Below are positions 15,849 through 34,951 of a DNA stretch of 64,000 bases, in pieces. The translations under genes were made by a program, and so were the position numbers. Location of the stretch: NCBI GenBank assembly GCA_023229725.1, contig JALNYR010000001.1, positions 9,292-73,291 of the forward strand, given 5' to 3'. Position 1 is the first letter of the stretch, and the number at the start of each line of letters is the position of its first letter. The notes beneath the pieces were generated by a model. That model saw only the letters and a program-made list of their open reading frames with translations. It had not been told where the DNA came from and made no database searches. Source of the DNA: Dehalococcoidia bacterium (GTDB lineage Bacteria; Chloroflexota; Dehalococcoidia; GIF9; AB-539-J10).

Positions 15849-15885
15849 TTCCTCTACATAGAGATCTTCCCCTACTCTCTACCTC

Positions 15886-16410: not shown

Positions 16411-16422
16411 TAGGAGGATTTC

Positions 16423-18621: not shown

Positions 18622-18714
18622 CGCACACGCCCTCACCAAGTTCCCTACCTTTTCAGTCTCGTGATTCACTTCACCTTGCTCAACGTGCTGGAAGGTCCAG
18701 CGAAGGAGGAAGAG

Positions 18715-18864: not shown

Positions 18865-18920
18865 CGCGTCGCGATCACAGGCGAACTCGAGAAGAACGAA
18901 GGACAGCGAGGTAAGGACAC

Positions 18921-19364: not shown

Positions 19365-19419
19365 GCGCACGGTGACGTGAGAGTCTGAAGAAGGAAAAGA
19401 AGGAGAAGAGGAGAAGATC

Positions 19420-20025: not shown

Positions 20026-20066
20026 GCAGCCCGCTCGGTCGTCGAAACCCCACCAGCCACTTCAAG

Positions 20067-20096
20067 TTCCCCCGCGCGAAGACATCGCTCTACACT
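20067..20096 (+). promoter_or_regulatory. candidate leaderless-type promoter (-10 TACACT, 6 nt, ATG 20103; weak -35 TTCCCC)
   Basis: TACACT 20091-20096, then tctcgc and ATG. Confidence 0.35.
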
Positions 20097-20102
20097 TCTC
20101 GC

Positions 20103-20897
20103 ATGACAGAGCAGCGTTACTTCGTCCCGTGGGCCCAGGCGGAACAGATCGACGTCGCAGCGAGCACCTACTTCAAGAACAGCTCGCCGTCGCTCTGGAA
20201 GAACAACCTCGACCAGCCGATCCACGTGACGCATCTGCTCGTCGACTCGAACAGCGTCACGACCGCGTCGATCAAGGTGGGCAAGCAGGGGCGCAGCCGC
20301 ATCGTCGATTCCTACGTCTCGACGCTCGCGCTCCACAACATCGAGCGGCTCTCGAACCAAGCGACCGACAGCGCGGCGCCGCTCTGGAAGTTCGACAAGC
20401 GCTACCCCGTGATCGTCTCGCCGCAGCAGATCTTCCAGGTCGAGATGACCGATCTGGCGGGCGCCATCCGCTACGTGAACGTCCAGTTCCACGGCTACCG
20501 GCTCTGCGACCCCTCCGAGCCCGTGGTTCTCGCGGAGCGGGTGACCCTCGCGTCCCTCGGGAACATCACCGCGCTCGTCAAGACCGACCCGAAGAGCCCC
20601 ATCATCATCACCGACTTCGGGTTCTACTGCGAGGAGACCGGCACCGCGGCGCTGCTCCGCGGCTTGAAGACGCGCGTGACTGAGGGCGGCCTGCCGCCTT
20701 GGATGAACATGTTCATTCGCGGCACGGTGCTCTTCCCGAACCGGCAGGGCGGCGCGGCCATTCTCGAACTGGCGCCCGACGATCTCTTGATCCAGCCCGG
20801 TGAGGTGCTCGAGTTCGAGGTGATCGACACCTCGGCCGCGGCCGTGACGGTCTACGTCGGCGCGGTGGGCTACACGGAGGATCGGAGGAGTCGATGA
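20103..20897 (+). CDS. beta-rich structural-type protein P2 (two modules)
   Basis: 264 aa. Mid LWKFDKRYPVIVSPQQIFQVEM...VNVQFHGY and C-terminal ILELAPDDLLIQPGEVLEFEVI...VTVYVGAVGY repeat the P1 motif. Confidence 0.7.
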   Translation: MTEQRYFVPWAQAEQIDVAASTYFKNSSPSLWKNNLDQPIHVTHLLVDSNSVTTASIKVGKQGRSRIVDSYVSTLALHNIERLSNQATDSAAPLWKFDKRYPVIVSPQQIFQVEMTDLAGAIRYVNVQFHGYRLCDPSEPVVLAERVTLASLGNITALVKTDPKSPIIITDFGFYCEETGTAALLRGLKTRVTEGGLPPWMNMFIRGTVLFPNRQGGAAILELAPDDLLIQPGEVLEFEVIDTSAAAVTVYVGAVGYTEDRRSR

Positions 20898-21757
20898 CGA
20901 CGCCTCGGCTAGACCAGGGGCGGTGGCTCCCGAACCTGCAGATGTACGCCGGCAGCACTGTCGCGGTGAACGCCGCGGCGAAGACGTTCCCTGGTGAGGT
21001 CGGCGTCTCGAAGGACCCGCTCAAGAACGACACGCAGTCGCCACTGATCGTGCGGGCGTTCTCCTGCACCGTCGGCTGGACGATCGCGCGGGCCAGCGTC
21101 GCAACGCCGCTGATCTTCGACGTGACGGTCAACACCATGCGCCGCGGGAGCTACAAGATCCAGCAGCAGAGCGTGCAGTACGCGCCGCACGTGAACTTCG
21201 TCACCGGGCTCTACGGCTCGCTCAACACGGCCGTGCGGCCCTACGTGTGGAAGTTCGCCGTGCCGGCGCTCCTCCAGCGCGGAGAGACGATCCTCTTCGA
21301 GTACGGCAACGTTTCGAGCGAGTCGGTCTTCGTGTGGTCGAGCTCGCAGGCGAAGGCCTCGAAGTACAGCATCCGCTGCCGCGGCAAGGTCACAGGCGAC
21401 CTCGTGCTCTTCGGCGGCGGCGGGACGCCCACGGCAGGTGACCGCCTCGTCGGCGTCCACCAGAACCTTACCGACGAGGACCTCGAGATCCTCTCGGTGA
21501 CGATGGTGGTCGGAACCGCGACCTCCGACCGGCCGATCTTCAACATGGAGATCGCGGGCCGCCGCATCTCCCGCGGCGAGCGCCCCTTCTGGCTCTTCGC
21601 CGAGCCGTTCACCTACGGGCGGTTCCTCTTCGACCGGCTCCCGGAAGGCGGGCTCGTGCTCATGCCGGGCGACAACTTCGAGGTCTCCGTGCAGAACCCG
21701 CAGTACACGAGCCTCACCGTGACGTTGGGCCTCGAGGCCTACCAGCAGGTGACGTGA
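20894..21757 (+). CDS. beta-rich structural-type protein P3 (two modules)
   Basis: 287 aa. VWKFAVPALLQRGETILFEY...SIRCRGKV and FLFDRLPEGGLVLMPGDNFEVSV...LTVTLGLEAY. ATGA overlap with P2. Confidence 0.7.
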   Translation: MTTPRLDQGRWLPNLQMYAGSTVAVNAAAKTFPGEVGVSKDPLKNDTQSPLIVRAFSCTVGWTIARASVATPLIFDVTVNTMRRGSYKIQQQSVQYAPHVNFVTGLYGSLNTAVRPYVWKFAVPALLQRGETILFEYGNVSSESVFVWSSSQAKASKYSIRCRGKVTGDLVLFGGGGTPTAGDRLVGVHQNLTDEDLEILSVTMVVGTATSDRPIFNMEIAGRRISRGERPFWLFAEPFTYGRFLFDRLPEGGLVLMPGDNFEVSVQNPQYTSLTVTLGLEAYQQVT

Positions 21758-22026
21758 TGCAGACGAGGACCTTCAACATCGCGCCCGGCGCCGCGGAAGA
21801 GATCGTGCTCGACCGCCCGGTCGCCATGACGCTGCTCATGACGAGCGACGACGACGTGGCCTGGCTCATGACCACCGAGGGTCCGCTCGACGTCGAGCGG
21901 GCCGTGCGCCTCGACAAGTCGCAGTGCCCCTTCACCAGCATTTGGGATGGGCTCCTCGTCATTCACTCGCCGTCGCAGGGCAGCCGCACCATTCAGGTAT
22001 CGCTCGCCATCGGAGGTGCCGCGTGA
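21754..22026 (+). CDS. small beta-rich protein
   Basis: 90 aa. FNIAPGAAEEIVLDRPVAMTLLM resembles the P1-P3 motif. Overlaps both neighbours. Confidence 0.6.
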   Translation: MMQTRTFNIAPGAAEEIVLDRPVAMTLLMTSDDDVAWLMTTEGPLDVERAVRLDKSQCPFTSIWDGLLVIHSPSQGSRTIQVSLAIGGAA

Positions 22027-22853
22027 GCTGGCGAACGTGGCTGCGGCAGACCGCCATCCGGCTCGGAATCGCCGAGCAGGGCTCGATCGCCGTCGAGGAC
22101 GGGCTCGACTACCTCGCGATGCTCGAGGAGCGGGCGAACGCGCTCCGCGTCGGCCTCCTCGAGACGGCCACGACGAGGCACCTCTACGTCGAGGAGGCGA
22201 CCGCCTACGACGTCGCCCGCGGCAACCTGCTCGCGACGACCAAGGCGATGCACTCGGAGCTCCTCGCGATGGGCGTGCCCGGCCAGCAGCTCCCGCGCGT
22301 CGTCATGCTCGGCCCGCTGCCCGCCGCCGTCCTCCAGGGCGTCACGCTCGCCCCGTCAGGCGCGATCTCGCCGGCCGCAGGCGGCGCGCTCGGCGCCATT
22401 CGAGTCGGGCCGCGCGGCGTGCCCGCGCACGTCTTCGACGCGGGCCCAGACACGGTCGGCGTGCTCAAGGGCCTCACCATCGGCGTCGCGGTCCAGTACG
22501 GGCTCGTGGTCATCGGCATCCTCGCCGCCGGCGCTGTGCTCACCTACTACCTGACGCGGCTCTTCAGCCCGGAGATTGCGCTCCAGCAGGCGGTCACGGA
22601 CCACGACCTGGGCGTCGCGGAGAACCTCCGCGACGTGCTCACCGAGTACGAACGAACGCGGCAGGCCGCGCTCGAGTCGGGCGTCGACCCGAACACGCTG
22701 CCGCCTCCGGACGTGAGCGGCTTCGCGACGCTCGCCACAGGAAATCCGCTCGCGGCAGGGCTCTCGAGCGTGAAGGGCCTCGCCATAGTGGCCTTCGCGA
22801 TCGGCGCGCTTTTCGTAGGGTACAAGATCTACAAGGACAGAAGGGAAGGTTGA
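22023..22853 (+). CDS. membrane protein with C-terminal anchor
   Basis: GTG 22023 (GTGA overlap; ORF track starts at 21924). YGLVVIGILAAGAVLTYYL, and ends GLAIVAFAIGALFVGYKIYKDRREG. Confidence 0.6.
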   Translation: MSWRTWLRQTAIRLGIAEQGSIAVEDGLDYLAMLEERANALRVGLLETATTRHLYVEEATAYDVARGNLLATTKAMHSELLAMGVPGQQLPRVVMLGPLPAAVLQGVTLAPSGAISPAAGGALGAIRVGPRGVPAHVFDAGPDTVGVLKGLTIGVAVQYGLVVIGILAAGAVLTYYLTRLFSPEIALQQAVTDHDLGVAENLRDVLTEYERTRQAALESGVDPNTLPPPDVSGFATLATGNPLAAGLSSVKGLAIVAFAIGALFVGYKIYKDRREG

Positions 22854-22855
22854 TC

Positions 22856-23083
22856 ATGGCACGGAGAAAAGGTGGCAAGTGGGCAGGCAAGCGGCGGTAC
22901 TGCGTGAGCGCGGGAGCGCCGGGCTTCGGGCAGCGGATCATGGCGTGCTTCTACAAGAAGTCGAACGCCACGAAGAAGTGCAAGGCGCTCCGCGCCTCCG
23001 GCAACCGCTGCAAGGTCATCGGCAAGGCGAAGGGCTCGCACGCCGGCCTGAAGTGCTGCTCGTGGCGGAAGAAGTGCCGGTAG
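22856..23083 (+). CDS. tiny basic protein, C-x6-A-x3-C-x6-G-x2-C-x-V family
   Basis: 75 aa from ATG 22856 inside ORF-track ORF 21947..23083. RBS gaagggaagg. Core ACFYKKSNATKKCKALRASGNRCKV. Confidence 0.6.
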   Translation: MARRKGGKWAGKRRYCVSAGAPGFGQRIMACFYKKSNATKKCKALRASGNRCKVIGKAKGSHAGLKCCSWRKKCR

Positions 23084-23108
23084 CCGTCTGCGGCTGAAGG
23101 AGAACATC

Positions 23109-23282
23109 ATGTCCAAGCGAAAAAGCACGCGCTGCAAGTACGCTGGTGTGACCGCGGCCGGAAAACCCTACTGCATGAAGCTCGGCCCGCGTGGCAGTGG
23201 CAAGACTGGGATGCGCTTCTGTAAGTGCCCCAAGTCGGTAGGCAGGCTCATGTCGCGCGACCCCTACGCCGGCTGGAAGTAG
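23109..23282 (+). CDS. tiny basic Cys protein (STRCK...CM...FCKCP type)
   Basis: 57 aa, below the ORF-track size cutoff: MSKRKSTRCKYAGVTAAGKPYCMKLGPRGSGKTGMRFCKCPKSVGRLMSRDPYAGWK. RBS gaaggagaac. Confidence 0.55.
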   Translation: MSKRKSTRCKYAGVTAAGKPYCMKLGPRGSGKTGMRFCKCPKSVGRLMSRDPYAGWK

Positions 23283-23308
23283 ACACTTCCACCTCGCTGC
23301 GCTACGAT
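23280..23308 (+). promoter_or_regulatory. promoter for leaderless mRNA (-35 TAGACA, 17 nt, -10 TACGAT, 6 nt, ATG 23315)
   Basis: TAGACA 23280-23285 (overlaps stop of upstream gene), TACGAT 23303-23308. Confidence 0.5.
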
Positions 23309-23314
23309 CCTCCC

Positions 23315-23521
23315 ATGGCAGTCCGCTACACGAAGCGCACGGCGCCGCGGAAGGGTGGCATCCTCGGGAACCTCCTCGGGCTCGTAGGAGACCTCGCTCT
23401 CTCCGCAGGCCAGAACGTCAAGCAAGCCGCATCGGCAGCCTCGGCCGGCCAGGTCACGCACAAGCCCTGCAACGCCTGCACGGCGCCCGCGGCGCCCCCG
23501 TCGAACGGCGGCGCCGCGTGA
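23315..23521 (+). CDS. small hypothetical protein
   Basis: 68 aa: MAVRYTKRTAPRKGGILGNLLGLVGDLALSAG... The ATG sits 6 nt after the -10-like hexamer. Confidence 0.5.
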   Translation: MAVRYTKRTAPRKGGILGNLLGLVGDLALSAGQNVKQAASAASAGQVTHKPCNACTAPAAPPSNGGAA

Positions 23522-23763
23522 GCCAGAACCCAGGGCCGGCGCAGCCGAACGAGCGGCGTGTCGAGGGCCGGTGCATGGCCTGTGGCTTCGAGGGCGATGT
23601 CATCGAGCGCACCATCGGCGCTGGGTTGAAGATCACGATGTGCGACCGCTGCTCGTTCGCCGGCCAGCAGGCGCTCGCGCTCGCGCAGACAGTGCGCCCG
23701 TTCGTCCCCATCGCGCAGAAGTTCCTCGGTGGTCTGCTGAACGCCATCGTGCCGCGCCGGTAA
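23518..23763 (+). CDS. small zinc-ribbon protein
   Basis: 81 aa. CMACG ... CDRC. Confidence 0.55.
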   Translation: MSQNPGPAQPNERRVEGRCMACGFEGDVIERTIGAGLKITMCDRCSFAGQQALALAQTVRPFVPIAQKFLGGLLNAIVPRR

Positions 23764-23798
23764 TCGAGCGCCAGCACTGGCGGTTATACGTTTGCATG

Positions 23799-23807
23799 TG
23801 GTAGCCT
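23799..23807 (+). promoter_or_regulatory. extended -10 element (TGgTAGCCT), 6 nt before ATG 23814
   Basis: TG 23799-23800, TAGCCT 23802-23807. No good -35; that position is occupied by GGTTATACG (23782-23790). Confidence 0.35.
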
Positions 23808-23813
23808 CACCAC

Positions 23814-26243
23814 ATGAAGCACATCCCGACCATCTCGCTCGTCATGATCCACAGGCGCGCTGGAGACCGCCTTCTCGAAGCGGTGGGCTCCGCGCTCGAC
23901 CACGTGGACGAGGTCGTGCTCGTCGACACTGGGCCGAACGATGACGACGACGCCGCGAAGGCAGCGCGAAAGTACATCGCGCAGTCCATCGAGCCCGAGT
24001 GCGCAGCGCGCGGCATTAACTTCAAGCAGGTAAATTACCGCGGCCCCGAGTTCCTGCACGACGGCCGGCGCTACACGGCCGACTTCTCCGCAGCGCGGAA
24101 CTTCGCGCACGGCCTCGCGACGAAGGAGTGGGAGTTCTTCCTCGACGCTGACGACATCCTGCAGTGGGACGGCGATTGGAACCTCCGCAAGCTCATCTCC
24201 GAGGTCCACGCGAAGCACCTGGGCGTCGGCGAGATTTCGATGCCCTACGCCTACCAGCCGGGGCTCGAGCAGGATCGAGTGCGCCTGTGGAAAAGGTCGC
24301 TCGGCTGGGAGTGGCGCGGCGCGCTCCACGAGGAGCGGCACCCGCTCGCGCCGGGCCGGTTCACCCGGTGCCAGCTCACGTCGGACGAGGGCTTCTTCGT
24401 CGAGCACCGCGGTGATGGCAAGGCGAGCCACGCGCGGAACGCCGCGCTCCTCAAGCACCTGTGGGACACGGGCCGTTACGACGAGTTCACGCCGCAGATG
24501 GTCTGCGCGTTCTTTGCGCAGATGCTCGACTACAAATACCTGTATATCCTCGACCTGGAAATGCCCGAGGATGCGAGCCGTGACGCGCTCGCGCTCTTCC
24601 ACGCGCTTCGCGCCGAGGCCTGCCGCCGGCTCGGACGCGAGAACGACATGCTCGCCGAGCTGGGCGCCGCGGTCGCGCTCGCGCCGGACGACCGCGCCCA
24701 CTGGGCCGAGCTGGGGCTCGAGTGGGCCAGCTCCGGTCGGGACAACGCCAAGCCCTCGGCCGCGCTCGCGCTCAAGCATGCCTTTCTCGTTCTCCCCGAG
24801 ACGTGGCGCTACCTCGCGCCGACTGGTTGGTTCGAGGGCGAGGCGCGGGAGAAGGCCGCGCGGTTCCTCGCCGACGTCGAGGAGTACGGCGTTGCCAGCC
24901 ACATTGCCGCTGGCAACGACGCCGTCTGGCGAAAGGTGAGCGACGAGATCAAGGCACAGGAGCATCGCGTCCTGCGACGAGGGCGCAAAATGGTTGGGAC
25001 GCCGGTGCGCCGCTTCGACCGCATCGACTTCCTCGTTTCGAGCCCAGTAGAGGGCTGGGGCCCACTCTCCGACAAGGTCGTCGGCGGCTCCGAGCTCGCG
25101 GTTCTCGAGGTTGCGCCACGGCTCGCGCGGCTTGGCATCGAGACGCACGTCTGGGCGCTAGGCCTGGGCACCGACGACGTGGGCGCGAAGGAACACGCGA
25201 TGGGTGGGGGCGTTGTTCTCGGTGCTGCGACGTGGCATGACCTCGCCGACTTCGACCCCTCGACGCCAACGGGCGCCGTCGTCGTGTGGCGAGACGCGCG
25301 CCGCATCCCCGGCTGCCGGGGCTTCGGGCATCCCGTCTGGCTCTGGGCGCACGACATCCCCGAGGTCTTCGGCGCCGAGGGCCTCCACGCCGCCGACAAG
25401 GTCTTCGCGCTCTCGAAGCATCATCTGCGCCGCTTCGCCGAGCTCGGCGTGGACGAGGAGAAGCTCGTTCTCTCGCAGAACGGGCTCGACCCAGGTGACG
25501 TGCAGGAGGCGTGGGACGCCGTGGTCAAGAACGGCGTTCGCGACCCGCACCGAGCCGTTTACTGCTCCTCGGCGAACCGTGGGCTCATGTTGCTTCTCGA
25601 CGCCTGGCCGGCCATTCGACAGCAAGTGCCCGACGCGACGCTCGACGTCTGTTACGGGCTTGAGATGTTCCGGCGCCGCGACACGCCTCCGCGGCTCCGT
25701 GGCTTTGCAGACTGGGTCGAGCAGCGCTGTGCCACGCTCGAGCCCCAGGGCGTCATCTTCCGCGGCGCGACGCCACACGCAGACCTGTTGCGCATCCTCG
25801 GCTCCTCTGGCGTCTGGGCCTACCCTTGCGTCTTCGAGGAGATCTTCTGCATCGCCGCCATCGAGGCGCAGGCGATGGGCTGCTGGCCGGTCACGATCAC
25901 GTCGGCCGCGCTCGCGGAAACGGTACACGGGGGATCCCTCTTGCCGCTGCGACAGCTTCAGGACGAGTGCGACCTTTCCCCTGAGGAACGCGCACTCGGT
26001 GAGGTCTGGACGACCGTGCATCCCGCGAGCCGTGCCTACGTCGAAGCCGTCGCGAACGCGATGTTGAAACCTCCCTTCGTCGCAGACCGAGCCAACTTAT
26101 CTGCTTCCATGCTCTCCATCTACGATTGGGCTCACGTGGCCGCGCATTTCGCGCGAGCCCTTGAGATGGAGAAAAACAATGACGGCTCAAGCCAAGACCT
26201 CGCTCGGACCGCTCGTCTGCGTCGTGACCAACTGCTGCCTTGA
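23814..26243 (+). CDS. bifunctional glycosyltransferase (N-terminal GT-A/GT2-like, central helical region, C-terminal GT-B/GT4-like)
   Basis: 809 aa. ISLVMIHRRAGDRLLEAV...VVLVDTGPNDD...FFLDADDIL (DxD). GGSELAVLEVAPRLARLGIETHVWA ... EEIFCIAAIEAQAMGCWPVT (E-x7-E). Confidence 0.75.
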   Translation: MKHIPTISLVMIHRRAGDRLLEAVGSALDHVDEVVLVDTGPNDDDDAAKAARKYIAQSIEPECAARGINFKQVNYRGPEFLHDGRRYTADFSAARNFAHGLATKEWEFFLDADDILQWDGDWNLRKLISEVHAKHLGVGEISMPYAYQPGLEQDRVRLWKRSLGWEWRGALHEERHPLAPGRFTRCQLTSDEGFFVEHRGDGKASHARNAALLKHLWDTGRYDEFTPQMVCAFFAQMLDYKYLYILDLEMPEDASRDALALFHALRAEACRRLGRENDMLAELGAAVALAPDDRAHWAELGLEWASSGRDNAKPSAALALKHAFLVLPETWRYLAPTGWFEGEAREKAARFLADVEEYGVASHIAAGNDAVWRKVSDEIKAQEHRVLRRGRKMVGTPVRRFDRIDFLVSSPVEGWGPLSDKVVGGSELAVLEVAPRLARLGIETHVWALGLGTDDVGAKEHAMGGGVVLGAATWHDLADFDPSTPTGAVVVWRDARRIPGCRGFGHPVWLWAHDIPEVFGAEGLHAADKVFALSKHHLRRFAELGVDEEKLVLSQNGLDPGDVQEAWDAVVKNGVRDPHRAVYCSSANRGLMLLLDAWPAIRQQVPDATLDVCYGLEMFRRRDTPPRLRGFADWVEQRCATLEPQGVIFRGATPHADLLRILGSSGVWAYPCVFEEIFCIAAIEAQAMGCWPVTITSAALAETVHGGSLLPLRQLQDECDLSPEERALGEVWTTVHPASRAYVEAVANAMLKPPFVADRANLSASMLSIYDWAHVAAHFARALEMEKNNDGSSQDLARTARLRRDQLLP

Positions 26244-26454
26244 GGCGACCAGCATCGTCGGTGTCGCCCATGGCCTCTCGACCACTCCCGACATCATGGC
26301 CGTCCACAAGTACGTGTGGGCCGCGAACGTGACGCTCGGCACGCCCGTGTCGGTGTACGCGGACTCGACCACGCTCTACTTCAGCAACGCGAAGGGCGAC
26401 AAGGCCGTGCTCGTGGACGGCTGGGCCCAGGTGGTCCACACCCTCGTCCGGTAA
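26179..26454 (+). CDS. small hypothetical protein (start uncertain)
   Basis: ATG 26179 would overlap the glycosyltransferase gene by 65 nt. Alternative starts are GTG 26224 and ATG 26299. Beta-rich sequence VHKYVWAANVTLGTPVSVYADSTTLYFSNAKGDKAVLVDGW. Confidence 0.4.
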   Translation: MTAQAKTSLGPLVCVVTNCCLEATSIVGVAHGLSTTPDIMAVHKYVWAANVTLGTPVSVYADSTTLYFSNAKGDKAVLVDGWAQVVHTLVR

Positions 26455-26477
26455 CCGACTGCTCGCGGTCGGTTCAG

Positions 26478-26528
26478 ACGGCCCGTTTCAGGCATAGAAC
26501 CTCCTGCCTGGAGCGGGCCGTTTCATAT
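26478..26528 (+). terminator. intrinsic terminator candidate
   Basis: acggcccg-ttt-caggca / loop tagaacctcc / tgcctg-gag-cgggccgt, followed by ttcatat. Lies between 26454 and the promoter at 26539. Confidence 0.45.
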
Positions 26529-26538
26529 GCAACTCCAG

Positions 26539-26567
26539 TTGCATTCCGCGCATGACCCGACTACGCT
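26539..26567 (+). promoter_or_regulatory. promoter for leaderless mRNA (-35 TTGCAT, 17 nt, -10 TACGCT, 6 nt, ATG 26574)
   Basis: TTGCAT 26539-26544, TACGCT 26562-26567. Confidence 0.5.
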
Positions 26568-26573
26568 CGGGCC

Positions 26574-27338
26574 ATGTCGAACCTCTTGTCGATCTACTGC
26601 TTCTACAAGAACGAGCTGGAGTCGTTCGGCGTCACGGTGCCGACCTGGCTCCCCTTCTTAGAGGGCGGCGGTGAGCTGGTCCTCGTCGACACGGGCTCGA
26701 GCGACCGCTCGCGGGAGTGGGCCGGCGCGCTCGCCGCATCGCCGCAGGTAGCTGCTGCGGGCATCTCGGTGAAGTCGATGGGAGCGCCCTGGCCCGACCC
26801 GATGAACTGGGCCGCCATCACGCAGCAGACGATGGACCTCTGCTCGAGGCCCTGGCGGCTGCGGCTCGACGCCGACGAGAAGCTCGAGGGCGATCCCAAG
26901 GCGCTCGCGAGCGTCTTGCGGAACCTCGAGCAGCTCGCGGTCGACCAGGGCCACAGCGCGCGAGACGGGCTCCTCATGCCCGGCACGTGTCCCGTCGCGC
27001 TCTCGGGGCTCTGTGTCTTCCTCCACGAGCCTGAGACTGGGGTCGAGCAGTACCGCTCGAGGCTCCATCGCGCCGGCTGGACGTGGAAGTACCGCATCGA
27101 CCCGGTGCCAGTGCCGCCGCCCGGAGAGGAAGGCGGCGTCTTCATGCTGCTCCAGAACTGGATCTGCCGCGTCATCCACACGCGGGCCTCCATCCGGCCT
27201 GACGCGCTCGCCCGGGCCGAGGGCGTGCTCGAGCTGGCCGAGCAGCTCGACGGGCCCCTCGACGGGCCGGCGCAGGTCCACTACCAGAACGCCATCGATC
27301 GCGCTCGAATCTACGGGAAGAAGGAAGGTGAGATATGA
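26574..27338 (+). CDS. GT-A/GT2-like glycosyltransferase
   Basis: 254 aa. LSIYCFYKNELESF ... LVLVDTGSSDRS ... RLRLDADEKL. Confidence 0.55.
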   Translation: MSNLLSIYCFYKNELESFGVTVPTWLPFLEGGGELVLVDTGSSDRSREWAGALAASPQVAAAGISVKSMGAPWPDPMNWAAITQQTMDLCSRPWRLRLDADEKLEGDPKALASVLRNLEQLAVDQGHSARDGLLMPGTCPVALSGLCVFLHEPETGVEQYRSRLHRAGWTWKYRIDPVPVPPPGEEGGVFMLLQNWICRVIHTRASIRPDALARAEGVLELAEQLDGPLDGPAQVHYQNAIDRARIYGKKEGEI

Positions 27339-30300
27339 GGTTCGTCACGTTGGTCGAGTGCGACCAGGATATTGCCGCGCTGCTCGAGACGGCGAAGTCG
27401 TCGTGGGACAGGTTCGGCGAGGTGCTCAACGTCTTCCGCGACGACGAGGGAAAGCTCGCCGAACGGCTGAACGCGAGGGTCGCGCACATCGAGGGCCCGG
27501 CCTGGGTCGCGCTCGCCGAGCTGAACGAGGAGTTCGCGGGCGACGGCGAGAACGTGAAGGAGGAGCTCGGCTTCTACGTCGAGCGGCTCTACCGGGAGAA
27601 CGTGCAGCTCACCGCGGCGGCGTCGTGGGTCGGGCAGGACTACGCGACCGCGAAGGCGTACCGGCCCAAGATCTGGTTCGTGCCCGAGGGCTCGACCTTC
27701 GGCGCCGAGTGGGAGTTCCGCTTCGAGGTCGACGTGGTCGTCACCTCGCGCCGGCCCACGGCCGACAACGCGATGTTCTCGGTGACGAAAGAGAACTTCG
27801 CCATCTCTCGAAGGACTTCGATTCGGAGCATCGGTGAAGTCGACCGGCGGCAGGCGATCGTGGCCGCGCTCGGACACGAGCTCACCTGCGCCGAAGAGCA
27901 GCACTACCAGGCCGCGCTCGTGCCGCCGTGGAGCCCGCTCCTCTCCCTCTGCGTCATCGCCCGCGGGGTCGACGAGGCCCTGCTGCGGATGCTCGAGAGC
28001 GTCCGTGGCCACGTCTCCGAGGTCTGCATCCTCTTCACGACCTTCGAGGACCCCGGTGTTGATCTCAGCACGGCAGATGGTTGCTTGCACGACACCGTGG
28101 ACGTGCCGTTGCGGATCGACTGCTGGCACGACCCGCACTCCTTCCAGCAATCCGACGGCACGTGGTGCATCGCGAACTTCGACTGGGCTCGACAGCAGTG
28201 CTTCGGGCTCGCCTCTGGGATGTTCCGCATGTTCCTCGACGCCGACGACACGCTCGAATGGACTGGAGCACCGCCCGCGCCGCCGCTTTGGGACATCGTC
28301 GCGAAGAACTTCCTCGCAGGAGCCAAGCGCGCGTACAGCTCGCGCTCGGTCGCGCTGCCCTACTTCTACGTGGGCAGCGAGCTGAAGGACGCGGCGGTGC
28401 CCGGCATCGCCCAGCCGCGGAGCTGCATCTTCCTGTGGGGGGAGGACGGTCACCCGCTCTGGCGTTGGCACAGGCCGCTTCACGAGCGCGCGGTGCCGAC
28501 CGAGTGGAACGTCGTCTCACGGCACGACAGCGTCGAGCTCCCCGGCGAGATCTTCATCATCCGCCACCACGGCGACGCCGACGTCGGCTCGCACCAGGAG
28601 CGGAACCGCTACATCGCTGAGTGGGCGCTCGAGTATCGCCCCGACCTCTCCGACATGGACCGCGCCGCGCTCGAGTTCGTCCTCGCGACCATCGCGCTCC
28701 GGGAGGATGGGATCGCGGCCGCGGCGCCGCGCTTCGAGCGCGCGATGGAGCTCGGGCAGGGTGACAGCTACGGCCTCGTCGCCGCCATCGACTACGCGAC
28801 CGCGCTCATCGCGGCGCACCGCCCGAAGGACGCGCTCGAGATCGTCATGCCGCGGCTCGACCTCTTCCCGACCGATCAGGGGCTCATGCTCGTCGCGGCG
28901 CGAGCGTACCGCAAGATGCAGCAGCCAGGCCTCGCGCTCAAGTGGTATTGGAAGGCGCTCGCCGAGAAGCCCGAGACGCCGGCCGGCCAGTCGTATCGCT
29001 GCCTCGTCGCTGACGTCGAGTACGCGGCCAGGCTCGAGGCGGTGGACGCCGCGGTGGAGGTGCGGCAGCTCGACGCCGCCGTCACCATCTTGGAGAAGGC
29101 GCCGGCGTCGATCAAGAAGCGCCCGGAGGTCGAGCGGGCCGTGACGAACGTGCGTCGGCTCGCGGGCGACAACATCGCGGCCACCTCCGTGCTCGCGCTC
29201 GTCCACTATCTCCTCTCGCTCGACTGCGTCGACCTCGCCGCGCAGGTGGTCGATTCGCTCACGCCGCAGCTCCTCGAGCTCGAGCCGGTAGTTCGGGCCC
29301 GTCGCGCCGTCGAGCGCCGCTCGCGCCACCTGCGCGACGACGGCGCATACCTCGCGACCTATGACATCCTCAACGAAGCCGACCTCGTCGTGAAGGCGAA
29401 GCGACATCAGGGCTTCCTCCTCGAGCGCATCATCGCCGCGGGGCCCGTCGAGTTCTGGGATGTCGGCTGCAACACCGCTTGGCTCACGATCGCCGTCGCC
29501 CAGGCGCTCCCGAAGTGCCACTGCGTCGGCATTGACATCTCGACAGCGCGGGTCGAGGAGGCGCAGCGTCGCGCCAAGCTCGCGGGCGTCGAGAACGTCG
29601 AGTTCTTCGTGGACGGCGCGGTACCGGAGCGCCCTGATACGTGCAGCAAGATCTTCGTCGACACGTTCGGACCTCGGCTCGTCCTCATCTCCGAGGTGCT
29701 CGAGCACCTGATCTCCCCAATCGACGTGCTCAACTTCTGGCAGTACGAAGGCGGCGCGGACCGCATCATGATCACGGTCCCCGACGTCGAGGCCTACTAC
29801 AACCTCTGGTGGTGGGCGCGGCAGTTGAACGAGCCGCTCTCGCACTCGCAGCGACTGGGCTCCGAGGGCGCCGAGCACGTCCGCTGCTACGACGCGCACC
29901 GCATCGTCGCCGAGTTGCGGGAAGCCGGCTTCGAGCCCGAGCGCGTCGAGCGTGTGGACATCTCGCAGAACCTCGTGGGCGAGGGCGAGCCGGACCAGAG
30001 CCTGCTCTTCGTGGACGCGGTTCGCGGCGCGAGCATGGAGGCCATGGCCGCGCTGCATCCATTCGGCCGCATCGACATCTTCTGCGAGGGCTACGTGCCT
30101 TGGGGCCCGCGCGCCCATCTTGAGGGCTCGGGCGCCACCTCGCGCATGGTCGGCGGCTCGGAGCAGGCCGTCATTCACCTCGCTCCGGAGCTGGCGGCGC
30201 GCGGCTACGAGGTCCACGTCTACGCCGCGCCGATGGAGCGCCGCGGCTTCGAGCGCGGCGTCTGGTGGCATCACCTCGGAGAGTTCGTGCCGTCCGAGCC

Positions 30301-31258
30301 GCGCGACCTCGTCATCGTCTGGCGCCGGGCCGAGCACCTCCATCGCTGCGTCACGGAGGCCGAGGGGCGCTGGCCGGTTTGGCTCTGGTGCCACGACGTG
30401 CCGGACCCGAAGCGCGCCGCGAACTACCGCGTCGCGGACCGCGTCCTCGTGCTCTCGCAGTACCAGCGCGAGCTCTACGCGGCGGTCGGCGTCGCGCAGG
30501 GGAAGCTGGTCGTCCTGCAGAACGGGGTCGACGCCGCCGCGATCGAGGTGGCTCGGACGACTCGCGATCCTGCAGTCGTTACGGCGCGAGAGTTCGACTC
30601 TCGTGCCGTCTTCTACGGCTCCTCGGGCGACCGGGGCCTCCTTCACCTTCTCCGGATGTGGCCGAGCGTGCGAGAGGCCGTGCCCGACGCGCAGCTCATC
30701 TGCACCTACCGCACTGACCTCATGCGCTGGCCGACGAACCCGCCGATCTGGTTCAAGATCGCCGACGAGATTGAACGGCTCGGCCGCGAGCTCCCCGGCG
30801 TCACCTTCTACCCTGGCCTGCCGCACGACGAGTACCTCGCCGCGGCCTCGCGCTGTGGCGTCTGGGCCTACCCGTCGAACTTCGAGGAGATCTCGTGCAT
30901 CGTCGCGATGGAGATGCAGGCCCTCGGCCTCGAGCCCGTCGCAACGGACCTCGCCGCGCTCTCGGAGACCGTCCTCGAGGGCCCGCTCGTCCGGTGGAAC
31001 ATCGTCTCGGACGAGCTCATCGCCGGAGGCGCTCGGAGCGAGGGGGGCACGCTCTGGGTGCCAGACGGCTGTTTCTCCAAGACTTTCCGCGATGTTCTCG
31101 TCGGTGCGCTGCTCGACCCGATGTCAGGGAATGACCGCCTCAAGTTATCCGAGGACGCGCTCGCCCGCTACTCTTGGACCGTGACCGCCCGGCTCTTCGC
31201 CGAGGCGATCGAGGAGTCCAGGCATGGCGACCACCCCCACGAAGAGCCGCGAGAGTGA
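27335..31258 (+). CDS. 1307-aa multidomain enzyme: unknown N-domain, GT-A, TPR-like repeats, class I SAM methyltransferase, GT-B/GT4
   Basis: LSLCVIARGVDEALLRMLESV ... FLDADDTL. Helical repeats aa ~400-700. FWDVGCNTAWLTIAVA ... VGIDIS ... LVLISEVLEHL (MTase motif I and post-I). MVGGSEQAVIHLAPELAARGYEVHVYA ... EEISCIVAMEMQALGLEPV. Confidence 0.75.
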   Translation: MRFVTLVECDQDIAALLETAKSSWDRFGEVLNVFRDDEGKLAERLNARVAHIEGPAWVALAELNEEFAGDGENVKEELGFYVERLYRENVQLTAAASWVGQDYATAKAYRPKIWFVPEGSTFGAEWEFRFEVDVVVTSRRPTADNAMFSVTKENFAISRRTSIRSIGEVDRRQAIVAALGHELTCAEEQHYQAALVPPWSPLLSLCVIARGVDEALLRMLESVRGHVSEVCILFTTFEDPGVDLSTADGCLHDTVDVPLRIDCWHDPHSFQQSDGTWCIANFDWARQQCFGLASGMFRMFLDADDTLEWTGAPPAPPLWDIVAKNFLAGAKRAYSSRSVALPYFYVGSELKDAAVPGIAQPRSCIFLWGEDGHPLWRWHRPLHERAVPTEWNVVSRHDSVELPGEIFIIRHHGDADVGSHQERNRYIAEWALEYRPDLSDMDRAALEFVLATIALREDGIAAAAPRFERAMELGQGDSYGLVAAIDYATALIAAHRPKDALEIVMPRLDLFPTDQGLMLVAARAYRKMQQPGLALKWYWKALAEKPETPAGQSYRCLVADVEYAARLEAVDAAVEVRQLDAAVTILEKAPASIKKRPEVERAVTNVRRLAGDNIAATSVLALVHYLLSLDCVDLAAQVVDSLTPQLLELEPVVRARRAVERRSRHLRDDGAYLATYDILNEADLVVKAKRHQGFLLERIIAAGPVEFWDVGCNTAWLTIAVAQALPKCHCVGIDISTARVEEAQRRAKLAGVENVEFFVDGAVPERPDTCSKIFVDTFGPRLVLISEVLEHLISPIDVLNFWQYEGGADRIMITVPDVEAYYNLWWWARQLNEPLSHSQRLGSEGAEHVRCYDAHRIVAELREAGFEPERVERVDISQNLVGEGEPDQSLLFVDAVRGASMEAMAALHPFGRIDIFCEGYVPWGPRAHLEGSGATSRMVGGSEQAVIHLAPELAARGYEVHVYAAPMERRGFERGVWWHHLGEFVPSEPRDLVIVWRRAEHLHRCVTEAEGRWPVWLWCHDVPDPKRAANYRVADRVLVLSQYQRELYAAVGVAQGKLVVLQNGVDAAAIEVARTTRDPAVVTAREFDSRAVFYGSSGDRGLLHLLRMWPSVREAVPDAQLICTYRTDLMRWPTNPPIWFKIADEIERLGRELPGVTFYPGLPHDEYLAAASRCGVWAYPSNFEEISCIVAMEMQALGLEPVATDLAALSETVLEGPLVRWNIVSDELIAGGARSEGGTLWVPDGCFSKTFRDVLVGALLDPMSGNDRLKLSEDALARYSWTVTARLFAEAIEESRHGDHPHEEPRE

Positions 31259-33167
31259 GCTTCGTTCCCTCGGCCGACGTTCCGTCACCGCAGTAGACGC
31301 TGCAGCTCCTGTAATCGACTCCGGGTTCGACGTTACCGCGTGGGATCAGGTCCTCGTCGCGGTCTCCGGAGACGTGGTGGGCGTCGCGGAGGTGCTGGTC
31401 TACGCCCAGTACGCCGGCTTCATCACGACCGCGCAAGCGCCGACGATGGTGCCGATGACGTACTTGCGCGCCGTGCCGCTCAAGGACCACACGAGCACCT
31501 ACCGCGGCAACGCGGCCTTTGTGCTCAACACGATGAAGGCCGACGCCATCTTCCCGTCCATCATCACCTTCTCCGGCGCGGCGACGGTGTACGTCAACGT
31601 CTTCGGGATCACGCCGAAGGGCGCCGAGCTCATCTCTGGGGCCGGCATTCAGGGGGAGGACGACGCTGACGTTTTTGACACCGTCGATCTCATCAAGGTG
31701 GGAGGCCAGACGCTCGCGGCACACGGCCTGGCCTCGACGACGATCCCGGTGCCGGTCGGGGCTCGGGCGACGGTGGCAGACCCGACCGACGTCGATGCGA
31801 ACGCCGTCGTGCTGCTGTCGACCACGCTCGGCTCGCGGCTGCGAGTTCAGGCGGGTGGAGTTGCAGCCCACGGGGATGCTGTCGCCGGCAATCCGGTCCT
31901 CACAGGCATGAAGGCCACGGATGCCGAGCCTGCCGACGTGACCGAAGGCGACGTCGAGGACCTCTCGGGAACGCTGGGCGGCCGGCTCCGGGTGAACGCC
32001 GTCGGCAACGTCGCGGACGATGCTGCTGCGGCGCTCGCCCCGGTGCGGGTCGCCGGCACGGCCGACGCGGTGCTCTCCACAGTCCACGACGGCGACGTCG
32101 CGCAGCTCGTGACCGACCTCTACAGACGCCTCGTGACGCTCCCGCACGGCGCGACCGCCGACGACGCCGCCGATACCGCGGCTCTGAACCCTGTCAAGGT
32201 CGGCGGCATCGCCATCTCGCACCTCACGCCAGACGCCGCCGATGCGGGCGACGTGGTTCACCTCTCGACCGACCTCTACCGGCGCGTGCGCGTGCTCCCC
32301 GAGGGCCCCATCGCCGACGACGCGGTAGCCGACGCCACGAACCCGCTGAAGGTGGGCGCCGTGGTCGACGTGGCCGTCGCGGATGCGGCCGACGGCGACA
32401 TGGTTCACCTCGTCACGGACCTCCAGCGACGGCTGCGCGTCGCGGCCGAGGGCGCCGGGGCCCACGACGCCGCGGTGGCCGGCTTCCCGGTCATCGTGGG
32501 CGCGAAGGCGACAGCGGCCGAGCCTGCGACGGTGACCGAGGGCGACGCCTCCTACCTCTCCACGAACCTCGTGGGCCGGCTGCGCGTGAACGCGGTCGGG
32601 AACGTCGCCGACGACGCCGTGGCCGACGCGCTCGGGCCCGTGAAGGTGGGCGCGGTCGCCGACCAGGTGCTCTCGACGGTCGCCGACGCTGACATGGTCC
32701 ACCTGATCACGGACCTCTCGCGCAGGCTCCAGATCCGAGACGGGCTCGCGGGCGACGACGTCTCCGGCGCGAACCGCGTGGCCGCGAACACGACTGCCGA
32801 CGAACGCGACGAGAGCGCCCAGCCTTGGGCGAACGAGACGCTCGCCGCGGCGACGGCGGTCTACTACCCGTCGAGCTCGGGCGCCGAGATCGGGAACCGG
32901 CCGTGGCTCACGTTCCAGGTGGGCATCCGCCACGGCACGCTGACCTTCGAGAGCTCGAACGACGGCACCTCGTGGACCGACGTCACGAAGACTGTCATCG
33001 ACCGCGGCCAGGGTGGCGGCGGGTACGCCTCGTGGGTCGAGCCCGACGCCGCGACGGTCTACTACCAGCTCGAGCTCGTGGCCGGCGCGCGGTACGTGCG
33101 GGCGCTCTGGACCCCGACCGACGCCACCTCGATCATCATCATCTACGTCATGGCGCGAGCCGCGTAG
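31224..33167 (+). CDS. repeat-containing spike/fibre-like protein (N beta-domain, 7 x ~50-aa repeats, C-terminal beta-sandwich)
   Basis: 647 aa. Repeats end in ...GD.VHL(V/I/S)TDL.RRLRV. C-terminal NDGTSWTDV...ARYVRALWTP domain. Start overlaps upstream gene by 35 nt. Confidence 0.75.
   Translation: MATTPTKSRESELRSLGRRSVTAVDAAAPVIDSGFDVTAWDQVLVAVSGDVVGVAEVLVYAQYAGFITTAQAPTMVPMTYLRAVPLKDHTSTYRGNAAFVLNTMKADAIFPSIITFSGAATVYVNVFGITPKGAELISGAGIQGEDDADVFDTVDLIKVGGQTLAAHGLASTTIPVPVGARATVADPTDVDANAVVLLSTTLGSRLRVQAGGVAAHGDAVAGNPVLTGMKATDAEPADVTEGDVEDLSGTLGGRLRVNAVGNVADDAAAALAPVRVAGTADAVLSTVHDGDVAQLVTDLYRRLVTLPHGATADDAADTAALNPVKVGGIAISHLTPDAADAGDVVHLSTDLYRRVRVLPEGPIADDAVADATNPLKVGAVVDVAVADAADGDMVHLVTDLQRRLRVAAEGAGAHDAAVAGFPVIVGAKATAAEPATVTEGDASYLSTNLVGRLRVNAVGNVADDAVADALGPVKVGAVADQVLSTVADADMVHLITDLSRRLQIRDGLAGDDVSGANRVAANTTADERDESAQPWANETLAAATAVYYPSSSGAEIGNRPWLTFQVGIRHGTLTFESSNDGTSWTDVTKTVIDRGQGGGGYASWVEPDAATVYYQLELVAGARYVRALWTPTDATSIIIIYVMARAA
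31653..32741 (+). repeat. in-frame tandem coding repeats (~147 nt unit, 7 copies, with a higher-order 4-unit period)
   Basis: Units R2/R6 (AHGDAVAGNPVLTGMKATDAEPADVTEGD vs AHDAAVAGFPVIVGAKATAAEPATVTEGD) and R3/R7 (VGNVADDAAAALAPVRVAG vs VGNVADDAVADALGPVKVGA) are closer to each other than to their neighbours. Confidence 0.8.
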
Positions 33168-33176
33168 GAGGCACCT

Positions 33177-33569
33177 GTGGACGAAAAGACGCTCTACCCC
33201 GAGAACTACGAAGAGCCCGAGGCCGAGGCGAAGGCGCCGGTCGGCCGCGACACGACCGCCGTGCTCGCGCTCATTCGGGCCGCGGTGCCCGTGGGCGGGA
33301 AGCCCCTCCCGGTCGAGGCGGTCCGCAAGCTCGTCTGCGGTGACCAGCCGCAGTACACGACCGTGGCCCAGGGTCCCGACCCCTCTGAGGACATGCCCGC
33401 GGCGCTCGCGGCGCTCGCCGCCGGCCAGCCCGTCGTCGGCCCGGCCGCGACCTCGAGCTTCCTTCCGGAAGAGGTCGACGCGCTCGTCCTCCAGGTCATC
33501 GAGGAGCGCAAGCCCTCGTGGAAGCCGGCCGCCGTCGCCGAGGCGAGGGTCGAGGAGCTGGTGAAGTGA
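33177..33569 (+). CDS. hypothetical protein
   Basis: 130 aa. GTG start after taggagg RBS. Confidence 0.6.
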   Translation: MDEKTLYPENYEEPEAEAKAPVGRDTTAVLALIRAAVPVGGKPLPVEAVRKLVCGDQPQYTTVAQGPDPSEDMPAALAALAAGQPVVGPAATSSFLPEEVDALVLQVIEERKPSWKPAAVAEARVEELVK

Positions 33570-34951
33570 CCGTCGGCGAAGTCATCCGCACGCCCGAGGA
33601 GCGTGCCATGGACCTGCTCTTCAAGCTCGGCCACAGCCTCACATCCCGTGATGCCGTCGAGCGCGGCGGCGCGACCATCGTCGGCACCGGCACGACGTTC
33701 GGGCTGGATGGGATGACGCTGAACGGTTCGGGGAACCTGAGCTACTCGACGGCGGGTCCGTCTGTCCTTCGCGCATCTCGTACAACGGTTGTGGAATTCA
33801 CGCTTGGATTCTCAGGTGACGATGGAGCCATTCATTACTTTTTCGATTATACGACACTATCGGGTACTGGCCGTTTCGCTATTACTAAGAATGCGGCGAA
33901 TGCGATTGTAGTGACGATTGGCGGAACTACAGTTCTTACCGTAGCATATGCGACGTGGAACGCCGCGCTAGTTGTTGGTCGAAACGTGTTGGTTCTATCG
34001 TCAATTACAGGGTCAACTACCCTATGGCTCAACGGCACTAGCATAGGAACGTCGGCGACAGCTTGGGCCGCAGTCGCGGGAATGCATACGTTTGCGGTAG
34101 GTGCTGCTTACGATAACGGGAGCCGCTTCACCGGCACCATTCACCGCTTCGAGATCTACGGCAACGTCGCCACCGCCGTTGACGAGCCCTACCTACGCGC
34201 CGGCACGCTGATCTCCGCGCTCAACGACCCGCTGGCCGTTTTGCCTGGCACGAGCTACTACAAGAACGACGCTGGTCTGTACGTGACCGACGTTGGCGGC
34301 CGAATCGGCGGCACGGCTCTGATGGGATCGGACGGCGCGACGGCGGCGCAGTTCCCGACGGTGGCTCGCTCGGCTGGCCTCGTACGCGGGTTTGGCTTTG
34401 ATGGTGGTGATCAAGTCAACCTTGGCGATTCAGACTTATTCAGCTTTACCGATGGTGCCGTAGATAAGCCGTTCACCCTGGCCTGCCTCGCTTCACAGAC
34501 GCTCGCGTCTACGCAGGCTCTTATCGCCAAGTCCAACGGGGTGACTGCTGGTGAATATCAGCTCGGACTGAACGTCAATGCTGGGATCATCGAAGCGGTG
34601 TTCCTTCTCATTGATGAGACGGGTGTTGCATACATCGGAAGAACAGGATCTTTGAATGTGAAGTTGTTGGGCGCATTGACCCCGATCATCGCAACGTGTT
34701 CCGGAAGTGGAACTGTAGCAGGATTACGGATCTACGCTGGTGGCATTCGCGCTGATACTACGAACACGACGTTTGGTGTGTACGCTCGAATGCGGAATAC
34801 AGCGCGGACGCTTCGTGTCGGAAACGACGATTCGGGAGTGATGCCGATGCGCGGTAGTGTTGTGCTTCCTTGTGCGTTTGACTACGAGGCTTCTCCCCTT
34901 CAGGCAAAGGCTATTGGCGCGCGCCTACTACAGCAATCGAGGAGGGGATAA
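33566..34951 (+). CDS. LamG/concanavalin-A-like lectin domain protein (probably two domains)
   Basis: 461 aa from GTG 33566 (GTGA overlap). ...AVGAAYDNGSRFTGTIHRFEIYGN is typical of Laminin_G_3-type domains. Parts of the gene have visibly lower G+C. Confidence 0.5.
   Translation: MTVGEVIRTPEERAMDLLFKLGHSLTSRDAVERGGATIVGTGTTFGLDGMTLNGSGNLSYSTAGPSVLRASRTTVVEFTLGFSGDDGAIHYFFDYTTLSGTGRFAITKNAANAIVVTIGGTTVLTVAYATWNAALVVGRNVLVLSSITGSTTLWLNGTSIGTSATAWAAVAGMHTFAVGAAYDNGSRFTGTIHRFEIYGNVATAVDEPYLRAGTLISALNDPLAVLPGTSYYKNDAGLYVTDVGGRIGGTALMGSDGATAAQFPTVARSAGLVRGFGFDGGDQVNLGDSDLFSFTDGAVDKPFTLACLASQTLASTQALIAKSNGVTAGEYQLGLNVNAGIIEAVFLLIDETGVAYIGRTGSLNVKLLGALTPIIATCSGSGTVAGLRIYAGGIRADTTNTTFGVYARMRNTARTLRVGNDDSGVMPMRGSVVLPCAFDYEASPLQAKAIGARLLQQSRRG

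Follow-up and report, generated by a model that had tools for sequence, protein, structure and literature searches.

Within a 64,000-nucleotide (nt) stretch assigned to a Dehalococcoidia bacterium (assembly GCA_023229725.1, contig JALNYR010000001.1, positions 9,292 to 73,291 of the forward strand), which is the whole piece of DNA analysed here and is called the window below, three genes between positions 23814 and 31258 encode six catalytic domains: three glycosyltransferases of the GT-A type, two of the GT-B type and one S-adenosylmethionine (SAM) methyltransferase, the support for the smallest of the three proteins being indirect. The genes belong to a mobile, phage-like element, and we favour, with moderate confidence, the reading that they form a cytoplasmic cassette with which this element builds a short methylated oligosaccharide on its own structural protein or proteins.

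Organisation of the cluster

The cluster and the gene that follows it are laid out as below (aa, amino acids; all on the + strand).

23814..26243, +: gene for an 809-aa bifunctional glycosyltransferase (GT-A, helical array, GT-B)
23814-24449: its GT-A/GT2 module (residues 1-212)
24450-24998: its TPR-like helical array (residues ~213-395)
25002-26198: its GT-B/GT4 module (residues 397-795)
26179..26454, +: 91-aa gene, function unassigned (third-position G+C content 0.88, orthologues)
26574..27338, +: gene for a 254-aa stand-alone GT-A-like protein (DAD at residues 99-101)
27335..31258, +: gene for a 1307-aa five-module fusion (Pfam, paralogy, full-length orthologues)
27335-27919: its orphan N-terminal domain (residues 1-195)
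27920-28624: its GT-A module (residues 196-430)
28625-29404: its TPR-like helical region (residues 431-690)
29405-30034: its class I SAM methyltransferase (residues 691-900)
30050-31234: its GT-B/GT4 module (residues 906-1300)
31224..33167, +: gene for a 647-aa repeat protein, a spike or fibre candidate and candidate acceptor

An earlier note on this DNA, made from the letters alone, had described the three enzyme open reading frames (ORFs), and all are present at the coordinates it gave, with every motif it quoted found in the translations (FFLDADDIL, EEIFCIAAIEAQAMG, RLRLDADEKL, FLDADDTL, FWDVGCNTAW, VGIDIS, VLEHL and EEISCIVAMEMQALG). Third-position G+C content, which marks genuine coding frames in this window of ~67% G+C, lies at 0.84-0.91 in all three. 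The genes are tightly packed: the last 65 nt of the 809-aa gene also hold the start of the 91-aa gene, the 254-aa and 1307-aa genes share 4 nt, an arrangement retained in relatives, and the 3' end of the fusion gene overlaps the start of the repeat-protein gene by the 35 nt that the note had reported (32 nt in relative L001 and 35 nt in relative L002).

Judging by their sequences, the 1307-aa and 809-aa enzymes are paralogues, as their GT-B domains share 36% identity (E-value 4e-60) and their GT-A domains 27% (E 8e-11). The larger protein has the module order of the smaller, to which it adds the methyltransferase in front of the GT-B domain and a further domain at residues 1-195.

GT-A domains and helical arrays

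Pfam detected the GT-A domains poorly, since PF00535 matched the 809-aa protein with an E-value of 2.4e-4, under the Pfam cut-off, and the other two GT-A domains had no Pfam match. The assignment made in the earlier note is nevertheless supported by profile and structure comparisons. When the GT-A regions of both large-enzyme families were combined into one profile, it matched GmaR (E 5.9e-12) and SunS (E 7e-7) in the Protein Data Bank (PDB), and in the alignment of these two families the DxD aspartates D108, D110 and D111 are invariant; D111, D113 and D114 of the motif in the 809-aa protein are likewise invariant among orthologues. For the 254-aa protein, which also has no Pfam match and whose best PDB profile match, again GmaR, is not significant (E 0.12), the evidence comes from within the cluster: its family aligned to the GT-A family profile in hhalign with a probability of 95% (E 2.6e-8), the protein itself matched the GT-A domain of the 809-aa protein in BLASTP (E 4e-5), and the DAD triplet is kept in its single aligned relative, from L001.

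The 809-aa protein was modelled with AlphaFold from six family sequences, and the model was usable over residues 1-357 (predicted local distance difference test, pLDDT, ~75) and poor in the N-terminal lobe of the GT-B domain (pLDDT ~30). Foldseek ranked SunS and ThuS at the top for this model (E 4e-16, target-normalised TM-score 0.52-0.61), with a root-mean-square deviation (rmsd) of 4.4-4.7 Å over ~305 residues, followed by SpsA and polypeptide GalNAc-transferases. The same model has paired helices at residues 202-357 (pLDDT ~75), which superpose on the helical domain of SunS. The TPR-like repeats that the note had seen in the fusion protein are borderline by Pfam, TPR_19 scoring 22.9 bits on the whole 1307-aa protein and 25.9 bits on its N-terminal half against a cut-off of 25, with no single stretch significant.

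GT-B and methyltransferase domains

The two GT-B/GT4 domains and the methyltransferase, all claimed in the earlier note, pass Pfam cut-offs (given here after each score). Glyco_trans_1_4 scored 34.8 bits (27) on the 809-aa protein and Glyco_transf_4 44.8 bits (28.5) on the fusion, and the glutamates of the E-x7-E motif are invariant in the family alignments (E676/E684 and E1185/E1193, respectively). The nearest PDB and fold relatives, which are weak, are PimB' and PimA, and the latter two align to the C-terminal part of the 809-aa model.

The methyltransferase was recognised at residues 706-870 of the fusion by Methyltransf_25 (35.1 bits; 27), Methyltransf_31 (31.7; 27) and Methyltransf_12 (30.3; 30), and its family profile matched 45 class I methyltransferases in the PDB (best E 7e-9). 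The matched enzymes act variously on small molecules, RNA and proteins, and their scores are alike. Motif I is present as the variant DVGCNT[AG], and D734, the acidic residue after strand 2, is invariant.

Relatives that act on proteins

The enzymes of known structure that most resemble the GT-A/helical half of the cluster proteins are the glycocin S-glycosyltransferases SunS and ThuS (PDB 7MSN, 7MSP, 7MSK), in which an N-terminal GT-A domain (GT2, DxD) is followed by a helical TPR-like substrate-binding domain, as in the 809-aa protein. SunS is encoded by a prophage (PMC6391423). Both differ from the present enzymes in being single-function proteins of ~420 aa that place one sugar on a small peptide and are not fused to a GT-B domain or a methyltransferase; moreover, the transporter and disulfide genes of their clusters were not found among the ORFs scanned here. 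GmaR (PDB 22ao), the flagellin O-linked N-acetylglucosamine (GlcNAc) transferase of Listeria and the best sequence match of the GT-A domains, likewise has a GT-A domain followed by TPRs. It transfers GlcNAc to flagellin, and its TPR domain has been proposed to recognise the substrate (PMC9638930), which is a protein that assembles into a large polymer. GmaR differs in that its C-terminal part is an anti-repressor rather than a second glycosyltransferase, and in being a host enzyme which modifies a host filament.

Protein acceptors therefore seem preferable to a polysaccharide pathway, given that the closest GT-A/helical relatives, GmaR, SunS and ThuS, act on proteins or peptides. None of the three enzymes has a predicted transmembrane-grade hydrophobic stretch, and a Pfam scan of the cluster and its neighbours found no flippase, polymerase, ABC transporter or initiating polyprenyl-phosphate transferase. 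Because the enzymes lack membrane segments, these Pfam families were not found in or beside the cluster and the locus is fixed in a mobile element, it does not have the make-up of an O-antigen, capsule or teichoic acid assembly locus. Among the ORFs scanned with Pfam there was also no gene for sugar-nucleotide synthesis.

A gene order conserved in related contigs

Relatives of the cluster were found on metagenomic contigs (L001, L002, L008, L009 and L010), and at least four contigs retain its gene order. Of the 1307-aa protein there are two full-length orthologues, P0002 (65% identity) and P0003 (55%), and of the 809-aa protein there are five orthologues, at 54-72%. The genes are kept in a common order, which runs from proteins of 201, 264, ~289, ~90 and ~275 aa through two or three small genes to a ~780-aa glycosyltransferase, a 90-aa gene, a ~255-aa GT-A protein, a ~1290-aa fusion and a repeat protein, so that the cassette is placed between very conserved beta-rich proteins on one side and repeat and LamG-domain proteins on the other. 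This order recurs in L001, in L008 and L009, both of which break off within the fusion gene, and in L010 up to its end, which falls at the small genes after the 780-aa glycosyltransferase and before the fusion gene.

As the gene order recurs in relatives, the cluster belongs to the element and not to flanking host DNA. The earlier note had named a flanking host polysaccharide locus as the case that would overturn its proposal, and we rejected this possibility on the conserved order and on the absence of membrane machinery from the enzymes and the scanned neighbours. An assembly chimera behind the 1307-aa ORF was also rejected, as three independent assemblies encode the same full-length protein.

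Other fusions were seen on two further contigs. L006 (~53% G+C) encodes at 275-4806 two proteins: a more distant relative of 1067 aa with GT-A, TPR, methyltransferase and GT-B modules, which shares 34% identity with the fusion and has no N-terminal domain, and after it a separate 440-aa protein of TPR and methyltransferase. L011 (ENA contig_19509) encodes at 8001-12116 the 1371-aa protein P0005, with the order GT2, TPR, GT1, GT2, GT1, in the neighbourhood of an integrase, a DUF87/TrwB-type ATPase and a 2761-aa protein; this contig may represent a further mobile element that carries a giant fusion of several glycosyltransferases.

The orphan domain and the 91-aa gene

Two items within the cluster had been overlooked in the earlier note, namely the 195-aa N-terminal domain of the fusion and the conserved 91-aa gene. 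Residues 1-195 of the fusion found only two matches among 1.84 billion representative proteins, both of them members of the family, and showed no similarity to the GT-A profile or to any solved structure.

The 91-aa gene has orthologues in L001, L008 and L009 and occurs in two copies in L010 (9577-9852 and 9895-10170). Its product has no Pfam match and carries a conserved TNxC[LM][ER]ATS motif, a conserved N-x-S/T site and a single conserved Cys; a role as acceptor or as accessory protein is possible. The gene also brings to mind a glycocin-like system, in which SunS-type enzymes would glycosylate the 91-aa protein and the product would act as a toxin, a signal or a decoration protein. SunS and ThuS are indeed the best structural matches, prophage origin is documented for SunS, and the 91-aa gene is always found between glycosyltransferase genes, with its conserved Cys and Ser/Thr motif and its duplication in L010. 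We nevertheless regard this explanation as improbable: one conserved Cys does not give the nested disulfides of a glycocin, the ORFs scanned included no ABC transporter-peptidase or thiol-disulfide oxidoreductase, and five glycosyltransferase domains plus a methyltransferase far exceed what a single-sugar glycocin needs.

Predicted transcription of the cassette

Two promoter-like elements and a pair of hairpins punctuate the cluster.

23778..23807, +: promoter-like element P1 (-35 TGGCGG at 23778-23783; -10 TAGCCT at 23802-23807)
26455..26523, +: two stable, terminator-like hairpins between transcription units (26455-26472 and 26476-26523)
26539..26567, +: promoter-like element P2 (TTGCAT at 26539-26544, 17-nt spacer, TACGCT at 26562-26567)

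The -10 box of P1 ends 6 nt upstream of the ATG at 23814, and P2 is followed by CGGGCC and then by the ATG at 26574. The regions upstream of the orthologues of the 809-aa gene in L001, L008, L009 and L010 follow the pattern TTGC[AG]G or TGGCG[GA], 17-18 nt, TATACT or TAGCCT, 6-8 nt, ATG; P2 is conserved in L001, L008 and L009 as TTGCAT, 17-18 nt, TA[CA][GTC]CT, CGGGCC, ATG, a pattern with one occurrence in the window against 0.05 expected by chance. Since the boxes are conserved and end 6-8 nt before the ATG, with no space for a ribosome-binding site, the leaderless-type promoters that the earlier note had placed at 23814 and 26574 are supported as conserved -35/-10-like elements, and we infer that they function as promoters.

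The hairpins at 26455-26523 have a minimum free energy of -44.9 kcal/mol (z-score -6.7), and none of 200 shuffled sequences was equally stable. L008 retains both with a different inner stem sequence, and L001 has none. This strong pair is what remains of the internal terminator of the earlier note, as it has no clean T-run and a generic terminator scan returned terminator-like sites at chance frequency. The cassette would be read as two leaderless transcripts: the one from P1 would cover the 809-aa and 91-aa genes, and the one from P2 the 254-aa and 1307-aa genes together with the repeat-protein gene that overlaps the latter.

Comparison with viral glycosylation systems

Virus-encoded single polypeptides with several glycan-building activities are known from the chlorovirus PBCV-1, in which A064R carries two rhamnosyltransferase domains and a methyltransferase acting on the terminal sugar of the capsid glycan, and A111/114R carries three glycosyltransferase domains (PMC7826918). 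The likeness to the present proteins lies in the union of several such activities in one chain; the chlorovirus enzymes serve a virus of a eukaryotic alga, build N-linked glycans, have another domain order and have no described TPR docking domain. In mycobacteriophages of clusters F and O, phage-encoded glycosyltransferases and an O-methyltransferase modify capsid and tail tube proteins (Freeman et al. 2023, as cited in PMC11600133 and PMC12619734). Theirs is also a set of several glycosyltransferases with an O-methyltransferase, but encoded as separate single-domain genes, and a tblastn search with the 1307-aa fusion against 50,697 phage records returned no mycobacteriophage record.

In that search only the GT-B domain of the fusion found matches, the best being to the metagenomic podovirus ctKR88 (MW202524.1), and a search of the same records with the N-terminal 400 aa of the 809-aa protein, its GT-A/helical half, found nothing. 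The 761-aa GT2/TPR/GT1 protein of ctKR88 is homologous to the 809-aa protein from end to end, at 26% identity over ~780 columns (E 6e-43), and has the same three-module order by Pfam. Its gene stands two genes after an SU10-type capsid gene and has further glycosyltransferase genes and a methyltransferase gene downstream; neither its 'gtA' gene nor its methyltransferase gene is specifically related to genes of the window. ctKR88 differs in being a tailed phage with a recognisable capsid protein and in having the methyltransferase as a separate gene, and the 761-aa protein is itself uncharacterised. The position of this homologue suggests that a GT-A/TPR/GT-B protein beside the capsid gene may be a recurring, overlooked phage module.

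BFVD, a collection of predicted viral protein structures, holds many GT-A/helical-repeat proteins of phages and giant viruses, some of them of 790-1443 aa. Together with the ctKR88 homologue they make the remark of the earlier note that such a fusion is unusual for a bacterial virus an overstatement, although the version with a methyltransferase and an N-terminal domain is rare. Multi-domain glycan-building enzymes of viruses, phage cassettes of glycosyltransferases with a methyltransferase, and a GT-A/TPR/GT-B phage homologue are already known. What is new is a fusion of five modules that include an embedded methyltransferase and an orphan domain, the combination of this fusion with a bifunctional paralogue and a third GT-A protein, and its occurrence in a lineage with structural genes that resemble nothing known.

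A proposed pathway and its alternatives

In the pathway that we propose, the cassette would be expressed together with the particle genes, and the helical arrays would dock the acceptor protein in the way proposed for GmaR. The GT-A domains would start the glycan on Ser, Thr or Cys, drawing on the nucleotide sugars of the host, the GT-B domains would lengthen the chain, and the methyltransferase would O-methylate a sugar, probably as a cap, in parallel with A064R of PBCV-1 and with the mycobacteriophage cassette. That two of the enzymes have docking arrays suggests a pair of acceptors or a process in two stages, and the orphan domain at the N-terminus may tether its enzyme to an assembly intermediate. 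Candidate acceptors are the 647-aa repeat protein, the conserved beta-rich proteins and the 91-aa protein. In the fusions a single polypeptide would dock the acceptor, transfer sugars in two ways and methylate, which would make them convenient for studying protein-directed glycan building that needs no membrane carrier, and potential tools for glyco-engineering.

Several points weigh against this reading. The acceptors are candidates only, and neither the glycan nor the sugar donor can be deduced from the genes. The substrate of the methyltransferase could be a protein rather than a sugar, and the GT-B domains appear nearest, by sequence and model, to PimA and PimB', which act on lipid-linked acceptors. 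Neither searches nor models could show that the upstream genes are capsid genes, and Pfam, PHROG and tblastn recognised no terminase, portal or HK97-fold capsid protein in the 64 kilobases (kb) covered here of the 79-kb contig, for which reason the viral nature of the element itself is a matter of inference. Scans of the IMG/VR viral contigs for the fusion, for the family of the 809-aa protein and for that of the 287-aa protein of the upstream block found no relatives. Finally, the element has an integrase, so that modification of the host surface in lysogeny is possible.

This last point leads to the view that the cassette modifies a glycoconjugate or surface protein of the host (teichoic acid, lipoglycan, S-layer, flagellin or pilin), thereby blocking superinfection or changing the serotype. 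The tyrosine recombinase would fit a temperate element, PimA and PimB' are lipid-linked mannosyltransferases, GmaR acts on a host surface filament, and soluble prophage glycosyltransferases which modify wall teichoic acid are known. We consider this view unlikely all the same, since the cassette lies inside a conserved block of beta-rich, repeat and LamG-domain proteins and is translationally linked to the repeat-protein gene, membrane components are absent, and the homologue in ctKR88 is encoded near a capsid gene.

Far less credible is a role in DNA hypermodification, in which glycosylated and methylated bases would shield the DNA of the element from host restriction. Phage clusters of this kind, combining glycosyltransferases and methyltransferases, are known (bioRxiv 10.1101/2023.12.21.572611), but the ORFs scanned included no base hydroxylase, kinase or DNA C5- or N6-methyltransferase family, the relatives of the GT-A/helical module act on proteins, and the cassette lies in the structural block, away from the replication genes at 0-8 kb.

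Returning to the glycosylation of structural proteins by the element itself, the first of the two alternatives in the earlier note, that virion or spike proteins are the target, has gained from the six domains, the membership of the cluster in the element and the protein-acting relatives, whereas its "capsid-like" genes are not established.

The structural block

The upstream block at 13781-23800 encodes proteins of 609, 174, 732, 147, 201, 264, 287, 90 and 276 aa. PHROG and Pfam searches with ten proteins of the structural block recognised no structural family, apart from a weak transglutaminase-like match at 15886-16410. Against the 50,697 phage records, nothing matched either positions 20000-38000 in megablast or the 609-aa, 732-aa and 287-aa proteins in tblastn. 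The 201-aa and 264-aa proteins are the most conserved of the family (67-87% identity), and PDB profile searches with their families found nothing; hhalign detected no relationship among the 201-aa, 264-aa, 287-aa and 90-aa families. Membrane segments are present in the 732-aa and 276-aa proteins. For the 287-aa protein, a capsid candidate, AlphaFold gave an all-beta model of low confidence (pLDDT 57), whose Foldseek matches are jelly-roll capsid proteins; the top one, birnavirus VP2 (E 1.7e-6), has a TM-score of ~0.2 and an rmsd of ~20 Å and is too weak to use. The "capsid-like" gene of the earlier note was probably the ORF at 21947-23083, to which third-position G+C content gives no support; the coding frame is 21924/22023-22853, and it encodes a membrane protein.

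Downstream of the cassette, the description "spike-like" for 31224-33167 is plausible, because its ~45-aa repeats (...D.VHLxTDLxRRLRV...) are shared with 38851-39909 and LamG-domain proteins are encoded after it. The two repeat proteins are paralogues with up to 50% identity (E 5e-36) and may be fibre or spike proteins; the 647-aa protein has no Pfam or PHROG match.

The carrier element

The other genes of the window that bear on the nature of the element are the following.

163-699, -: RNase T-like exonuclease
4238-5838, -: SNF2-type helicase
5988-7421: primase/helicase-type AAA_25 protein (Pfam E 2.7e-24; phrog_906, phrog_239)
34951-35751: HNH-AP2 (HNH_3 + AP2) endonuclease
43547-45187: phrog_1735 member of 546 aa, function unassigned (E 7e-100)
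49377-50264: tyrosine recombinase
52369-53133 and 53714-54283, -: two M23 peptidases
56420-56642, -: tRNA-Tyr(GTA) and tRNA-Met(CAT)

The genes of this list that belong to the phage gene pool point to a phage-like element. One could also suppose that it is not a virus but a plasmid, an integrative element or a secretion or adhesin island, whose cassette glycosylates adhesins such as the repeat and LamG-domain proteins. The lack of a recognised terminase, portal or capsid family, the absence of the family from IMG/VR and the weakness of the capsid evidence speak for this, but we hold it to be quite unlikely in view of the phrog_1735 member, the primase/helicase, the SNF2 helicase, the HNH-AP2 endonuclease, the M23 peptidases and the tRNAs of the window and of a DUF5131 gene in L001. 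Also against it, no conjugation genes were seen in the element, and scans of 185,579 species genomes (GTDB) with the fusion and the 287-aa family found no related locus.

A bolder version of the favoured reading, which we put forward tentatively and regard as doubtful, is that the element represents an unclassified lineage of prokaryotic viruses of ~79 kb, without recognisable HK97, terminase or portal genes and possibly with a jelly-roll capsid and a membrane, which decorates its capsid or spike with a methylated oligosaccharide by means of cytoplasmic assembly-line enzymes made of SunS/GmaR-type modules fused to GT4 extenders and a sugar methyltransferase. If true, this would be a prokaryotic counterpart of chlorovirus capsid glycosylation. 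Glycosylation of particles by the virus's own enzymes was long considered confined to giant algal viruses; in mycobacteriophages it has been shown only recently, and there it weakens antibody recognition. The present cassette would carry it into an unrelated, uncharacterised virus-like lineage.

Three genes of the window call for a further remark. The phrog_1735 member has homologues in 538 phage records, with up to 45% identity, and the homologue of Pamexvirus phiH1 sits between ribonucleotide reductase and ligase genes. The primase/helicase ORF lies in a stretch with a G+C content of 0.59, has a TTG start and failed the third-position G+C filter; it may have been acquired separately. The HNH-AP2 ORF, in a stretch with a G+C content of 0.57 against ~0.67, stands exactly between a LamG-domain gene and a 663-aa gene which in L001 abut without an insert, and it looks like a recent homing-endonuclease insertion.

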